Source of the DNA: an uncultured Candidatus Saccharibacteria bacterium
GTDB lineage: Bacteria > Patescibacteriota > Minisyncoccia > UBA6257 > 2-01-FULL-56-20
DNA length: 64,000 nt
NCBI GenBank assembly: GCA_964442965.1
Contig: CAYUBE010000001.1
Location: 3,301 to 67,300, forward strand
Direction: 5' to 3'
The notes beneath the pieces are model-generated. The model was given only the letters and a program-made list of their open reading frames with translations. It was not told the DNA's origin and made no database searches. The first letter of the stretch is position 1, and every line of letters begins with the position of its first letter. Shown here in pieces: positions 3,472-9,299 of this stretch. Made by a program: the position numbers and the translations under genes.

Positions 3472-5181
3472 TTAATGATAGCTTTGGTATGTTGATGGAG
3501 CCCGCGTAAAATGGGCCCTTCGTCTAACGGTAGGATATCGTCCTTGCCAGTTCGAAGATGCGGGTTCAACTCCCGTAGGGTCCACCGAAGGGGTATTCGT
3601 GTCCACGAATTCCTCAAAAAGCATTGCAGCAGTTGGTATATCGGCGGTTCGATAGCCATTTTCCGTGCTGTATGCCAATTTTCGCTCGAAGATGAAGAAG
3701 AAGATGCGGTGTTGCTCGGCGACATCGAGCTTTTGCCACGCAATGTCGGGCTTTTTGAGTAACCCCACCGCTTTGCCGAGGGCGGTTCGATAAGGCACTG
3801 ACAGGTCGATGCCAGCGATTGATTCACTGCGGATTTCTTCGAGTTCTGCGGAGGTTTTTTCCATCTGCTTTTCATATGCGGATCGTGCTGATTCGGATTT
3901 TGCCTTCGCACCGGCGAGCGCGAGCTCCTCGAGGGTCTCACCTAATGCCTTTGCCTTTCGGTTCATCGCGGCCTGCTGTTTTTCGACGTCGCTCACTTCT
4001 TCCTTCCACACTGCATCGAAGACGGCGCTGATGAGCTTTTCCGTCTCTGGTTTCAGGCGGCTCCGACGAAGAAGTTGCTTGAATGGCTTTTCGACTTCAT
4101 CTTTGCCGATCGACTTGCCGCGGTACTCGCACGATTCGTTGCGGCAGGCATATTTGTAATATGCGTAGCGACCGTGGCGTCCTTTCGATTTGCCCGACGT
4201 CACGTGGCCGCCGCAAGCCGGGCAGCATATCAGCCCTCGGAGCGGGAAGTCGGGATTGAGGTCTTTGCGGATTTGTTTTTCAGATGCAGGTTTGTCGAGG
4301 CGTTGCCTGTTGAGCTCATACGTCTCGCGGGAAATGATGCCTTCGTGATGGCCCGGTCTTCGGGAAACACCCCATGGAAGGTATTCGATGTCGCCGCAGT
4401 AGAAACAGCTTTGCGCCATCGCCTTGAAGTCATCGACATAGCGTGCTGCTGATTTCCTTTTCCAAACTCCTCGGTCGATGAGAAATTGGCAGGCATCGAT
4501 GGGCCGGAGCAGGTTGCCGGTCGAAAATGCTTCTAGTGCTTCCGCAAGAATGCGAGCGCCCTTGTTCGGCTTCGATATTTTTCCATGCACCGGGTCTTTG
4601 ACCATTTCATATCCTCTGAGAGCAGTGAATGGCCAGTAGCCCTTTTCGAGTCGAGCCATTTGCTTTTGGATCACTTGCCTCCTGTTTTCGAGGCGCTCCA
4701 TCTCGCCGTGTGCAGCCATGACGATCTCCGCAAAATTGCCGGTGGGCGAATCCTCGAAGCTGAAGTTGAGGCAGTGCAACATCACGTCGCGGGCTTTGAA
4801 TGCCGCGCGGAGTTTGATGTGGAATTCTACCGAGCGCGCGAAACGCTTGAGGTCGTCGAAGACGACGACGAATTTTTTGTGGGGATGCGCGTCTATGTAG
4901 CCGAGCAATTCCCGCATAGCGGGTCGCATCATGAAGTCGCCGCCGCCGGTGAAGCTGTCTGCAAATGTTGCCGTGGCCGGAACGTTGATGGTCTGCAGGT
5001 AATTCCTGCAACGCGTATCCTGACCTTCTAGGCCGTGGCCTTCGGTCTCCTGTCGCTTGCTCGACACGCGCCGGTAGATCAGCCCCTCCCTGCCTTCGTA
5101 GGAAGGGGCTTCGTGCGGTTCGAGCAGATCAGCGACGGTCTTGCTTATGCCTTTCGACTTGTTTGCGGAGTTTTTTGGCAT
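3472..5181 (-). CDS. large serine recombinase (resolvase/invertase N-terminal domain + recombinase + zinc-ribbon/coiled-coil)
   Basis: N-terminal YRRVSSKRQ catalytic-serine motif, CxxC...C zinc ribbon, 569 aa. Confidence 0.85.
   Translation of the reverse strand: MPKNSANKSKGISKTVADLLEPHEAPSYEGREGLIYRRVSSKRQETEGHGLEGQDTRCRNYLQTINVPATATFADSFTGGGDFMMRPAMRELLGYIDAHPHKKFVVVFDDLKRFARSVEFHIKLRAAFKARDVMLHCLNFSFEDSPTGNFAEIVMAAHGEMERLENRRQVIQKQMARLEKGYWPFTALRGYEMVKDPVHGKISKPNKGARILAEALEAFSTGNLLRPIDACQFLIDRGVWKRKSAARYVDDFKAMAQSCFYCGDIEYLPWGVSRRPGHHEGIISRETYELNRQRLDKPASEKQIRKDLNPDFPLRGLICCPACGGHVTSGKSKGRHGRYAYYKYACRNESCEYRGKSIGKDEVEKPFKQLLRRSRLKPETEKLISAVFDAVWKEEVSDVEKQQAAMNRKAKALGETLEELALAGAKAKSESARSAYEKQMEKTSAELEEIRSESIAGIDLSVPYRTALGKAVGLLKKPDIAWQKLDVAEQHRIFFFIFERKLAYSTENGYRTADIPTAAMLFEEFVDTNTPSVDPTGVEPASSNWQGRYPTVRRRAHFTRAPSTYQSYH
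3513..3584 (+). pseudogene. degenerate tRNA-Ala-like copy (tRNA pseudogene / att-site remnant)
   Basis: acceptor GGGCCCT/AGGGTCC with G3:U70, canonical D-loop AACGGTA and T-arm GCGGG-TTCAACT-CCCGT, loop CTTGCCA (TGC); but no anticodon stem will pair (TCGTC vs GTTCG); overlaps the recombinase ORF 3' end on the opposite strand. Confidence 0.4.
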
Positions 5182-5404
5182 TGTATTTAAGTTCGACCCT
5201 GATGATGTTGCGGCAAAACGCTTCGAGGTATTGCAGGCGTTGTTTCACCTGCTCGTCGGAGCTCGCGTTGTCGCCGAGTATCTTGCGATACTCTTCGATT
5301 GAGATCATGGGACATAGTGTTCGTGATGCTGCCCCAGATTTGTGATCTGATAGTGGTCATCGGGTTAGTAATGGCCCCGGCGTTTTGGCCGATAGCCAGC
5401 GTGG

Positions 5405-6217
5405 TTACCTGTCGAACCGCCTGCGTCGCTTGATCTCAATCGATTGCGGCTTGCCGTCCGCCATGTGTGTGATTACATCGCCAAAGATGCGGCTGTCCTT
5501 AACGTATTGGTGGACGTCTCTCACGTGCGGATTTTCCGGCTGGGCGACCTTTGTGGTTTCGATTTCGCTGATGTTGTTGTCTTTGAGCTTCACGCGCACC
5601 TCTTTGTTGCCTTCGTGGTAGATGCTTTGGCGGAGCGTCATCTCTTTTCTGTTGATCATGGACTGGGTTTCGACGTCCGGCACGTTCACGCCGACTTCTC
5701 TGAGTATCCTGCGAAGCGGGATAACGATCATGTCCATGGGTTCTTGGACGGGTCGCTGGAATTCCATTTCTGCCGGTGAGCTCAATCCCGCCTTGCCGTC
5801 TGGGAGTATTGCCACGTAGGGGTCGGCGTTGGAGAAGAGTGCCGCGAAGAGATAGAACTCGAATTCGCCGTAGCGGTTTTCGTGCAGTGCGTCTTTCCGC
5901 ATGATGCGCTCTTTGGCCTTCGCGATCTTGTCGAGTGACATGCCGAAGTCGCGGAGATGTTTTATGATCCTGATCCACGCCACTTCGACCGCGCTGAACT
6001 TCCGCCATTCCTTGTCGTTCCTAATGCGATTCGCAAGCAGGCCATGCTCGTCCCAGAAGTTGATCTGCCGGTATGGGATTTTGGTCTCTGCGACAGTGAA
6101 GCGTTCCTCGTTGAACATTGCCCGGATGTCTTGGAGTTCGGGGCTGCTTTCGTATTCTGGGATGAAGTATTCGTCGGAAAGCACCGCGCCACTCATGATC
6201 GCGAAGTTGTCGTACAT
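5405..6217 (-). CDS. MerR-like HTH transcriptional regulator (hypothetical); alternative upstream starts up to 6556
   Basis: IPYRQINFWDEHGLL segment resembles MerR-family HTH; ATG at 6217 preceded by AAGGA. Confidence 0.45.
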   Translation of the reverse strand: MYDNFAIMSGAVLSDEYFIPEYESSPELQDIRAMFNEERFTVAETKIPYRQINFWDEHGLLANRIRNDKEWRKFSAVEVAWIRIIKHLRDFGMSLDKIAKAKERIMRKDALHENRYGEFEFYLFAALFSNADPYVAILPDGKAGLSSPAEMEFQRPVQEPMDMIVIPLRRILREVGVNVPDVETQSMINRKEMTLRQSIYHEGNKEVRVKLKDNNISEIETTKVAQPENPHVRDVHQYVKDSRIFGDVITHMADGKPQSIEIKRRRRFDR

Positions 6218-6474
6218 CCTTTTTCCCGGTTTCTGATTTTTTGGCGCATTCTCCGGGAATGGCTGGGGGTGGTTGCGTTGGATTTTGAATTGGCCTCTTT
6301 TGGATGTCATATCCAAACTATACATCGCTGTATATTTTATGCAAGTGCTGTGGATGGCTCGCGAAATATGGGCTTTAGCGCTCCCTCGCGATTGGGGTGG
6401 GTTATTGGGGGCCAAAGCCCCAACGTGGGGCAAACAGGGCGGAAAGAATGGCGACGGGCGTTCGCTCGGCTCGT

Positions 6475-7938: not shown

Positions 7939-8436
7939 GGTGATGTTTTGTGGTTGGTTGATATGAAAATGCTCCCCACGCGGAGGAGCTTGTTACCGAC
8001 CAAAAAGCCCACCGCATGGTGAGAGCTTGCGCTCTCCATACCGTTTCCGGCATGGCCTTGGAAGACAGCCCATGTGATGGGTTCTTTGTCTTCCAAGGAC
8101 TTTGCTTTTGCCATGCCGTCGCGTTGCCGCGAGGGTTTAGGCCCTTTTCAGTTGTGATTAGATTTTAGCGCGATGGCGGCGGGAAGTCGAGATAAGAAAA
8201 TGGCGACTGCTTACGGGCGAGTCGTCATTGATTTTCAGGGCGAAGGGTAGTGTTAGCTTGCCTGCGGCACTGTAGATTTCTCATCGGATGGCGGGAGAGC
8301 TAATTGCTCTTTGTAGATCGCGTCATAGGTCTTGCGGATTTTGCGCATCGCTTTAATCTTGGCGGAGGTCTTCGAGTCCTTCCCAAAGACGATGCGATAG
8401 GCCGCTTCGATGTCCGCTGACATGTCCTCGATTTTT

Positions 8437-9099
8437 TTATTGCTCATGGCGTGGTTGTTGCACGGCCGTCATTTCGCGCTGATAAGTCCCGTGATTGAGT
8501 GCGACTTTTTTAATGTTCGGCTGCGCGAGCATCCGCGTCTCCGAGATGGTGTCTGTCATGATGACGGCTCGGGTGTGCTTTTTCTCTATCGTCTGCGTCT
8601 TGTCCATAATCTTGATCTGCGCTTCCGCGCAGAGCATCGCGGCATCCCATTTCATGATTGTGTTGGCTGCTTCGATCTGGTCGTGGATTGTCGGACGGCC
8701 ATCGCCTTTGGAAGTGCTTGTTGTTTCGGATGCTGCAATCGCCATGAGTTTTTTTGTGAGGAAGCGATGACGCTCACGCACTGCCGCCCATCGCGCATGG
8801 CGGTCTTCGGTTGAGAGTCGCGCAATGTTTTCGATGCGTACCTTGTGGATGAGCTTCGAGATGTAGTGCCAATCAAGCTGTCCCTGATAGACGGAATGGT
8901 AGCCGTAGCGATAGAGTTGGGTGCGGATTTCCTGCACTGAAGCGAGCGGGTTCTTCGCGAGCTCGTCGCGGATCACGTCTTTGAGCATGTCTTCGATTTC
9001 TGGTTTCTTGCGCATGTTCGTGGTTATTCGCGGTTTGAGAATTTTGAATTTGCGTCGGCGAATTTCACTGATGACCTGCTCGAGCTTCTCTTGGAACAT
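8437..9099 (-). CDS. hypothetical protein (element-associated)
   Basis: 220-aa ORF, no recognised domain. Confidence 0.4.
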   Translation of the reverse strand: MFQEKLEQVISEIRRRKFKILKPRITTNMRKKPEIEDMLKDVIRDELAKNPLASVQEIRTQLYRYGYHSVYQGQLDWHYISKLIHKVRIENIARLSTEDRHARWAAVRERHRFLTKKLMAIAASETTSTSKGDGRPTIHDQIEAANTIMKWDAAMLCAEAQIKIMDKTQTIEKKHTRAVIMTDTISETRMLAQPNIKKVALNHGTYQREMTAVQQPRHEQ

Positions 9100-9299
9100 G
9101 TCATACAGCTCGAGGAGAGTGCCTCCTTGAGCTTGGTGTGTTCAATACTGCATGTGTGGATGTCAGTGTGCATAGGATTTCGGATTTTCCAGCACTTTTT
9201 GGAGTGCGGGGCTGGTTTGATAGTATTCCCAGAAGTCGGAAAGGTAGCGTTTCAGGCGGTTCGACGTTTCGCCCCGTCTGTCCACGCGGGCGCAAACCA

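Follow-up and report, generated by a model that had tools for sequence, protein, structure and literature searches.

The locus examined here, near the start of a 64,000-nt stretch of contig CAYUBE010000001.1 (the window), carries the gene of a large serine recombinase (LSR) that runs antisense through a tRNA-like gene, and raises the question whether the genes beside it form a mobile element and, if so, where such an element ends, what it targets and whether it is complete. A first-pass annotation of this DNA had proposed an integrated mobile element with the recombinase at its edge, beside the tRNA-like gene, and both an empty site in relatives and a second copy in a different genomic context bear this out. 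The integrated element spans window positions 3586–9285 (5,700 bp), with every gene on the minus strand, and very probably belongs, intact and integrated site-specifically, to a family of small (4–8.5 kb) circular elements of Paceibacterota. The span given before started at 3472, and its first 114 nt (3472–3585) proved to be host DNA; the flanking genes named at the time, RuvB and SDR on one side and LTD, TsaE and Rel on the other, were confirmed.

Scanning metagenomes with a recombinase profile recovered a sister element on a 134-kb contig (L010), the recombinase of which is 97% identical to that of the window over residues 1–540. Nucleotide identity between the two is 90% over window 3562–6968, 76% over 7986–8207 (the LOOT RNA described below) and 71% over 8545–9285, with the rest of the L010 contig unalignable with the window except for an unrelated tRNA-Ser, and the genomic contexts of the two elements are unrelated. 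Next to its recombinase gene the sister element adjoins a tRNA-Ala(GGC) that is intact, and 25 nt past its far end lies a tRNA-Ser(TGA). Identity starts at the boundary between …GGGTCCAC and CGAAGGGG… and stops at the end of …CTGTCCAC, and these limits therefore place the sequence GTCCAC at both ends and give an element of 5,700 bp.

The corresponding site is empty in the relatives L108–L111, with RuvB, LTD and TsaE being 91.6%, 65.6% and 61% identical to those of the window, respectively. The gene order in the contigs with the closest RuvB is DUF5671, RuvB, 340 nt, LTD and TsaE, with neither the SDR gene nor the element, and the 340 nt contain the same module of promoter, small RNA, terminator and tRNA-like gene that precedes the window element; in the element-free relative, 26 nt separate the tRNA-like gene from the start codon of LTD. 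In L108 the empty site reads …CCCGCCAG, CTCCAC and ACGGGCGCAAAAG… in succession up to the ATG of LTD, with the tRNA-like gene ending in …CAG followed by CTCCAC, while joining the flanks of the window element rebuilds a chromosomal attachment site (attB) of …CCCGTAGG, GTCCAC and GCGGGCGCAAACCAATG (LTD), in which the tRNA-like gene ends in …AGG followed by GTCCAC. Conservation of the block throughout the relatives, which would have spoken for resident genes, was not observed, as the relatives with a 91.6% identical RuvB hold the empty site. Relatives found through Rel (species genomes) retain topA-rel synteny, which is broken right after rel, and are uninformative on the insertion site. Judged by sequence comparison, the element is present or absent at a defined site and elements of the same kind recur in differing contexts (L108–L111, L010, L069 and L038), which qualifies it as an integrative element.

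The ends are bracketed by a 6-bp direct repeat, GTCCAC, so that the right-end attachment repeat, which the first-pass annotation could not identify, does exist. A repeat search of the window found no tRNA-like copy near that end and only a 14-nt inverted match at 3295–3308, since the true repeat was too short to be picked up this way; the direct-repeat search proposed earlier was thus negative for a long tRNA-like copy, and the short repeat emerged by comparison. The boundaries were fixed because three comparisons agree, namely those with the sister element, with the element-free relative and with the junction position across the family, which falls on the same Val-Asp/Glu codon pair in 30/30 members (27 integrated metagenome loci, the window element and two circles); on the recombinase strand the left core reads GTGGAC and encodes Val-Asp. 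A MAFFT alignment paired the right junction with a second GTCCAC inside the element, a pairing ruled out by the spacing from the FEEF motif and by the proteins of the free forms. The composition of the element, a check proposed in the first description, is in modest agreement: its GC content deviates mildly (0.536 versus 0.504 ± 0.022), and its tetranucleotide distance is the highest among all 5.7-kb segments of the 64 kb.

Placing the junction in this way cuts the recombinase gene. Residues 1–534 are encoded by the element, and the last 35 (PTGVEPASS…) are read antisense from host DNA (3472–3579), the final 38 codons of the open reading frame (ORF; 3472–3585) being host sequence and the read-through spanning the tRNA-like gene and a further 41 nt. 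The antisense overlap noted at the outset was real, and covers all of the gene (ARAGORN, 3513–3586 (+); Rfam, 44.1 bits). Circular reading, with 3586 joined to 9285, yields a 572-aa protein ending in …NTPSVD followed by RRGETSNRLKRYLSDFWEYYQTSPALQKVLENPKSYAH and a stop codon, which places the attachment site of the element (attP) within the recombinase ORF, 38 codons ahead of its stop. The missing 38 codons are located in the gap at 9100–9299, which had been taken for non-coding. An attP inside the integrase ORF is a feature of SSV-type self-partitioning integrases, and together with the segment at the far end it means that integration removes a conserved tail of 33–45 residues, replaced by the antisense of the RNA gene (35 residues in the window, >100 in L010). 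A read across the attP junction of an excised circle is expected to contain CGCCCCGTCTGTCCACCGAAGGGGTATTCG, the circle junction being …CGTTTCGCCCCGTCTGTCCACCGAAGGGGTATTCGTG… and the empty site …CTCCCGTAGGGTCCACGCGGGCGCAAACCAATG….

The 569-aa ORF, first recognised by its YRRVSSKRQ motif and zinc ribbon, was upheld as a recombinase by Pfam and PHROG matches and by its invariant motifs, and its catalytic, recombinase and zinc-ribbon features, as read from the sequence, identify it as an LSR. Pfam Resolvase (PF00239) matched residues 35–181 (E 1.7e-17), PHROG 95 'integrase' matched with E 1.7e-47, and the TP901-1 catalytic domain (3bvp) was matched at E 5e-6. Zn_ribbon_recom (PF13408; 24.7 bits, cutoff 25.3) and Recombinase (PF07508; 18 bits, cutoff 21.1) fell just below cutoff, both families being precomputed as present in many homologues, and the NCBIfam matches to XisF and CcrB were sub-threshold only. 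Within the catalytic motif R38, V39, S40, S41 and Q44 are invariant in 21 homologues, and the zinc-ribbon residues C320, C323, C346 and C351 are likewise invariant among homologues. An AlphaFold2 model of the homologue P0117, which is 50% identical, had a predicted local distance difference test (pLDDT) score of 88.5 and showed coiled-coil helices at 366–414 and 418–438 (pLDDT >90), a feature assessed on the model of this homologue rather than on the window protein itself; Foldseek matched the model to full-length serine integrase/DNA complexes (4kis, 9dxd and 9iu2) over 350–550 columns with E 1e-17 to 1e-10. No second protein with a Resolvase domain is encoded within the element. Gene calling affects recognition of this locus: in the source contig L005, a 71-kb JGI metagenome contig (3300041809, Ga0455670_0003378), the JGI calls omit the 569-aa recombinase (8751–10460, equivalent to window 3472–5181) and shorten the neighbouring 59-aa protein to 39 aa. 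Both proteins are called in the identical sequence by ENA and Logan, and the JGI annotation would miss the element.

More than 940 recombinase homologues (~50% identity) were present in databases, nearly all of them in Patescibacteria-type assemblies, and the JGI metagenomes contained at least 519 family loci. The recombinase 3′ end was readable in about 76 loci. The core GTGGAC was followed by a tRNA-Ala (GGC, UGC or CGC) identified by ARAGORN, antisense at the LSR 3′ end, in 22 loci, and GTGGAG by the 3′ end of a transfer-messenger RNA (tmRNA) in about 38 loci (ARAGORN tmRNA in 19, Rfam tmRNA in 7/7 of those checked); one locus had a tRNA-Leu(CAG), three had non-tRNA sites, and in three (possibly four) the recombinase ORF ran into a conserved peptide without an RNA gene. 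What the tRNA-Ala and tmRNA targets have in common is the alanine-identity acceptor end U70-C71-C72-A73. Some elements have mixed cores, in which the recombinase side reads GTGGAG but the tail side GTGGAC, or GTGGTG and GTGGAC in L030, and strand exchange is therefore confined to GTGG, which corresponds to tRNA C71-C72-A73 and the next base. Two of the loci in which the ORF runs into this peptide are circular contigs and carry the recombinase and its tail in one ORF (L069, 7,749 bp with a 127-bp terminal overlap; L038, 7,422 bp with a 55-bp terminal overlap), giving free circular forms of 7.4–7.6 kb next to integrated copies of 4.1–8.4 kb.

Four loci had atypical junctions (L021, L030, L057 and L047), three with GTGGTG or GTGGAG by non-tRNA sequence and one at the tRNA-Leu(CAG) with the core GTGGGC, and these may represent secondary sites or a shift in specificity. 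In L050 two tail segments were found upstream of one recombinase (tail-like matches at 1991 and at the contig start), which may reflect tandem elements or the far-end leftover of an earlier insertion.

Several observations weigh against an intact, site-specifically integrated element. The 6-bp repeat alone is not above chance, being too short for significance, and a second GTCCAC lies inside the element, 21 nt in (3601–3606), where it encodes the VD of …EEFVD…. The first copy was chosen because of the family spacing from the FEEF motif and because of the free-form proteins, the internal one being specific to the window/L010 pair and not the family junction. The reconstructed att sites show no clear dyad symmetry that would pin a central dinucleotide. 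The AlphaFold2 model gives two helices for the tail (pLDDT about 77–83), a confidence that is moderate, the alignment holding very few tail-bearing sequences and no contact information. The window copy has no recognisable replication, packaging or transfer gene, and the roles proposed below for the 59-aa protein (p59), the MerR-like protein, the LOOT RNA and the tail are inferred. Finally, for the window copy itself neither a circular junction nor an empty site turned up: the contigs with an identical recombinase or LTD (four retrieved for each, from at least six samples) are all integrated, the strain being present in samples SRR6946416, SRR6181340, ERZ27249851, ERZ27249816 and JGI 3300041809 and 3300014161, and exact-protein look-ups with the recombinase, SDR and LTD returned the same strain with the element only, with no polymorphism.

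These last results are what would be seen if the element were an immobilised relic, integrated once by the same mechanism, now unable to excise, through loss of the native recombinase tail or from another cause, and fixed in the chromosome of the lineage. The proteins on these contigs are 100% identical, no circle was found for the window copy, and SSV-type self-splitting integrases are thought unable to excise unaided (PMC8371274). Against this, the LSR as far as the core, p59, both cores and the tail ORF, stop codon included, are all intact. The 90%-identical copy in another host implies recent transfer, and detachment takes no more than 7% of the protein, from its end, so that every recognised LSR domain stays in place. 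We consider a relic unlikely, and an intact element the better description of the locus.

The split-gene part of this reading requires the far-end segment to be the recombinase C-terminus. It is present in all 30 delineated elements, where it begins right at the core of the far end and is read from the recombinase strand for 35–47 codons, with the consensus V(D/E)xxxxT(S/L)NRLKxYLSRFWEYYQ(T/S)SPxLQKxLEN. An attP binding arm could be imagined instead, as the segment adjoins the crossover, where LSR subunits bind about 20–25 bp, but the conservation extends over >100 nt, well past an att arm, and shows third-position wobble: sequence pairs differ by 0.29, 0.29 and 0.49 at first, second and third codon positions, a pattern that marks the tail as translated sequence, and its frame is open in 30/30 elements, with stops in the other two frames in 30/30 and 25/30. 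Gene callers at times report short ORFs ending in the segment, as a separate small gene would predict, but these begin in unrelated host DNA and no conserved start codon follows the core. Both alternatives are also contradicted by the circular contigs L069 and L038 and the proteins P0109, P0117 and P0101, in which tail and recombinase are fused in frame with unchanged spacing from the FEEF motif, and we regard either as quite improbable. Of 120 database homologues, about 100 have a C-terminus translated from tRNA or tmRNA antisense (…G[IFV]EP…), while the native tail is present outright in three and a few more end in non-tRNA tails; the common C-terminal pattern is …LFEEFxxxNxxDV(D/E)xxG(I/F/V)EP…, the last part of which is the antisense of the tRNA acceptor end and T arm.

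A search of 1.84 billion representative proteins with the tail peptide gave mostly short ORFs ending in the tail, and one LSR C-terminal fragment (P0258). The top match (P0252, 1341 aa) is a perfect tandem repeat that has no relation to the element and matched by chance through units of the LLQGFWRVF type, and P0264 was a second spurious repeat.

The remaining genes of the element are listed in the table. The five genes reported downstream of the recombinase were recovered, while the 59-aa ORF overlapping its start had been overlooked. This protein, p59, has a conserved core, EYRK(I/L)LxDxxSSDEQ(I/V)KxRLxYLEAFCRN(I/V)I, usually overlaps the recombinase start across the family, and by its size and position is a candidate directionality or accessory factor; the MerR-type protein is a candidate regulator. 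Recombinase, p59, a frequent MerR-type protein and LOOT form the backbone of the family, with the other genes as variable cargo. Elsewhere in the family the cargo includes DNA methylases, CfrBI, a type I S subunit, SocA/Panacea and Ymh proteins, as well as PLD and HNH nucleases, trypsin-like peptidases and a few primase/helicases.

Table. Features of the integrated element, its junctions and its target in the window
Feature	Position	Strand	Evidence and remarks
Host tRNA-like gene 'B', attB-bearing target	3513..3585	+	ARAGORN; Rfam; comparison with 16 canonical tRNA-Ala targets; L108 module
Integrated element	3586..9285	-	Sister element L010; empty site in L108; family-wide junction positions; composition
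Left junction core GTCCAC	3580..3585	.	tRNA positions about 69-73 plus 1 nt; high identity to L010 begins here
Large serine recombinase ORF, integrated state, 569 aa	3472..5181	-	Pfam; PHROG; invariant motifs; homologue model
p59, 59 aa	5129..5308	-	Overlaps recombinase start by 53 nt; in 30/30 elements
MerR-type helix-turn-helix (HTH) protein, 306-aa call	5405..6325	-	Pfam MerR_1 1.6e-12; ORF open to 6556; in 18/30 elements
Zinc-ribbon protein, 164 aa	6475..6969	-	Weak below-cutoff matches; variable cargo, in 3/30 elements
Membrane protein, 315 aa, duplicated N-terminal transmembrane segment	6991..7938	-	PHROG 3403 and 28655 (unknown function); in 2/30 elements
LOOT RNA (RF03000)	8021..8143	-	71.8 bits; E 3e-12; gathering 46.4; model 1-121/121
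Hypothetical protein, 64 aa	8253..8447	-	No family match
Hypothetical protein, 220 aa	8437..9099	-	No family match; in 4/30 elements
Detached recombinase 3′ end	9163..9285	-	Core GTGGAC (Val-Asp), 38 codons (RRGETSNRLKRYLSDFWEYYQTSPALQKVLENPKSYAH), stop codon; recombinase frame restored only in the excised circle
Right junction core GTCCAC	9280..9285	.	Followed by host DNA GCGGGCGCAAACCA, then LTD start codon at 9300

The LOOT RNA lies in the second supposed non-coding gap (7939–8252), 83 nt upstream of the membrane-protein gene. It is preceded by a promoter-like site (8190–8162) and followed by terminator-like hairpins with U tracts (8023–8008 and 7989–7971); the consensus scans did not rise above shuffled controls. 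LOOT was found inside the element in 11 of the 17 related loci examined, in addition to the window, in either orientation relative to the recombinase, and was located 0–180 nt upstream of an ORF on the same strand in 9 of these 11 cases. This fits a 5′ leader or small RNA tied to cargo genes. No description of LOOT was found in the main text of Weinberg et al. 2017.

The first-pass annotation had also considered a prophage remnant, here taken as a larger phage reduced by deletion. The phage-database search proposed with it did return PHROG 95 'integrase' for the recombinase and two PHROGs of unknown function for the membrane protein, and the zinc-ribbon protein has weak, below-cutoff matches to SPP1 gp7/minor head protein; searches of the window cargo against Pfam, PHROGs, PADLOC, NCBIfam and PDB sequences gave nothing beyond these latter matches and the MerR HTH. 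Virion genes were found neither in the window element nor in 29 relatives: no capsid, terminase, portal, tail or conjugation gene was detected in the window element or in 121 cargo ORFs of 27 relatives. The free circles and the integrated copies have the same backbone and the window element is therefore of full family size, in the same range as the two circles, and none of 2.9 million viral contigs contained a close relative (no close single-protein match, and no more than 35% identity in the family-profile search). A defective prophage is thus a most improbable origin. An inovirus was ruled out as well, since neither a pI/Zot ATPase nor a Rep is present.

The target is a tRNA-like gene with an aberrant 2-base anticodon according to ARAGORN. 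Its acceptor stem is of the alanine type (G3:U70), its T arm is normal and its loop reads CUUGCCA (UGC); the anticodon stem contains a mismatch and an extra U, and the D arm is weak. Since this gene lies outside the element, and a homologous module occupies the same place in the element-free L108, directly before LTD, it is host DNA and the integration target (attB), not cargo. That the element brought the tRNA-like gene along or made it by duplication, as first suggested and as the presence of two such modules in the window (560–842 and 3225–3586) might imply, has next to no probability, given that L010 identity covers merely the last 7 nt of the tRNA, beyond which L010 has a different, canonical tRNA-Ala(GGC), and given the module in L108; the copy at 560–842 is a separate host duplication.

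The module itself comprises a promoter, a small-RNA-like unit of about 90 nt with a terminator, a second promoter and the tRNA-like gene, and occurs at 560–842 and 3225–3586 of the window and at 10030–10323 of L108. The three tRNA-like genes share G3:U70, the T arm, an irregular anticodon arm and the loop motif (C/U)UUUGCCA(A/G), and the two window copies differ by three compensatory acceptor-stem pairs, so that the label 'degenerate' given to copy B is doubtful. ARAGORN names just one of these copies tRNA-Ala, and Rfam gives a tmRNA match (21 bits) and no tRNA match for 768–844. In each of the modules the small-RNA-like part is complementary to the anticodon-loop/3′-stem region of its own tRNA-like gene, with covariation: GAACTGGC/GCCAGTTC at window 3323–3330/3548–3555, GGTTTGGC/GCCAAACC at 664–671/802–809, and CCGACTTGGCA/TGCCAAGTCGG at L108 ~10142–10152/10283–10293 (coordinates derived from offsets). 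Module B has an additional 14-nt complement, 3295–3308 versus 3532–3545. This suggests that the small-RNA-like part and the tRNA-like RNA may pair with each other.

The surroundings of the element show changes of their own. The SDR gene at 2438–3187 (~2312–3218), between ruvB and module B, is absent in relatives with 90–92% identical RuvB, where ruvB is followed directly by the module in L108 and by a CYTH-like gene in L112; the stretch after ruvB thus varies independently of the recombinase element. At the tsaE/rel junction (window 10340) synteny is broken in both directions, as the RuvB-based relatives run from tsaE into a 5′-3′ exonuclease, ftsA and ftsZ, and the Rel-based relatives lack tsaE and LTD, which suggests that the lineage of the window underwent a rearrangement with its breakpoint here. 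Upstream of ruvB, about 360 nt of non-coding DNA (925–1287) is conserved in L108 (8650–9000) without an Rfam match at E ≤ 1, and is possibly a structured RNA or leader.

LSRs bind attP and attB as dimers, make cuts with a 2-nt stagger, and religate the ends after subunit rotation. Applied to the present family, this chemistry would have the recombinase of the circle recombine attP with the 3′ end of a gene for an alanine-accepting RNA, which is a tRNA-Ala or tmRNA gene in the family and would be the alanine-type tRNA-like gene here. Crossover takes place within GTGG of the core GTGGAC, as the junction comparison shows, leaving the RNA gene intact and only a 6-bp repeat at the ends. The circle encodes a 572-aa enzyme with a conserved helical tail; after integration its last 38 codons lie 5.7 kb away, and the gene continues antisense through the tRNA-like gene to a chance stop, for a product of 569 aa, with excision expected to restore the full recombinase gene. 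Directionality may be set by p59 and/or the MerR-type protein, the tail swap may alter the activity of the free and integrated forms, and LOOT may be a 5′ cargo leader. One may go further and see the tail swap as a built-in directionality switch, with the full-length circle enzyme competent for integration and the tail-swapped chromosomal form competent for excision with p59, or locked, and LOOT as a dedicated regulatory part of the family; we put this forward tentatively, as it is more doubtful than not.

As an integrated element in one genome the locus is ordinary, and the interest, which is moderate to high, attaches to the family. It comprises a whole clade, with hundreds of loci in bacteria of the candidate phyla radiation (CPR), that uses only the acceptor end of alanine-accepting RNAs (tRNA-Ala and tmRNA), and with cargo that includes restriction-modification, toxin-antitoxin and nuclease genes it shows a route of CPR gene flow. 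The LOOT RNA, an orphan of unknown function, gains a genomic home. The question of the tail swap bears on directionality control in large serine integrases, which are tools for genome engineering, and if the switch were true, the structure of its own gene would let a bacterial serine integrase sense whether it is integrated. The family is apparently undescribed, our search having found, within the library that was searchable, no paper that combines Patescibacteria with LSRs; integrative elements with serine integrases are as such already known.

Among known systems the closest precedent is formed by the ssrA islands of Dehalococcoides, in which DsiB, a CcrB-like LSR, integrates at the tmRNA 3′ end, and its gene overlaps attL/ssrA at its 3′ end (PMC3146451). 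The overlap of the LSR gene with the target RNA is shared with the window element, where the target is tRNA-like and not ssrA, and about half of the present family likewise targets tmRNA; tRNA-Ala genes are among the targets of the present family, unlike in the DsiB islands. McMurdie et al. 2011 speculated that DsiB is perhaps fully functional on the circle only (PMC3146451). The DsiB islands have a 20-bp repeat, a crossover in the T loop and a size of 10–30 kb (PMC3146451), compared to 6 bp at the acceptor end here, and contain a six-gene module with ParB-like genes and a second, small serine recombinase (DsiA), as opposed to a single recombinase with a 59-aa partner. The detached tail is conserved here, whereas the DsiB alignments, which we compared by their description, were reported as divergent in that part, and no conserved detached tail was described for those islands (PMC3146451).

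With the integrases of phiC31, Bxb1, TP901-1 and A118/LI the recombinase shares a catalytic domain, a recombinase domain and a zinc ribbon with an inserted coiled coil, as well as short att sites, with attL and attR having little in common beyond the crossover. It is ≤26% identical to any phage or plasmid integrase in INPHARED/PLSDB, and differs from the phage-type enzymes in the extra conserved C-terminal domain and detachable tail of its family. In these systems attP is not known to lie within the int ORF. Like the islands of tyrosine integrases found by Islander and TIGER, the elements insert at the 3′ end of t(m)RNA genes, which stay functional, with the integrase at the island edge by the tDNA; here the enzyme is a serine recombinase and no displaced tDNA fragment of ≥15 bp is present at the far end, for which reason Islander-type searches would miss these elements, and the 6-bp scar makes them invisible to standard island finders. 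Islands at t(m)RNA genes are usually sought by way of tyrosine integrases and long repeats. According to earlier descriptions, tRNA genes are not among the known targets of serine integrases (PMC4383910), with a later survey listing 14/297 candidate tRNA-gene-targeting serine integrases as needing proof (PMC7192596).

The self-splitting of the gene has its parallel in the 'suicidal' integrases of the SSV1 type from archaeal viruses and plasmids, which carry attP in their own gene, so that integration into a tRNA gene splits the gene and excision restores it (PMC8371274). Self-partitioning integrases have been described as exclusively archaeal tyrosine recombinases, and those of the SSV1 type are left as two inactive halves (PMC8371274). 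The present family constitutes their bacterial serine-recombinase counterpart, in which 534 of the 572 residues stay together after integration.

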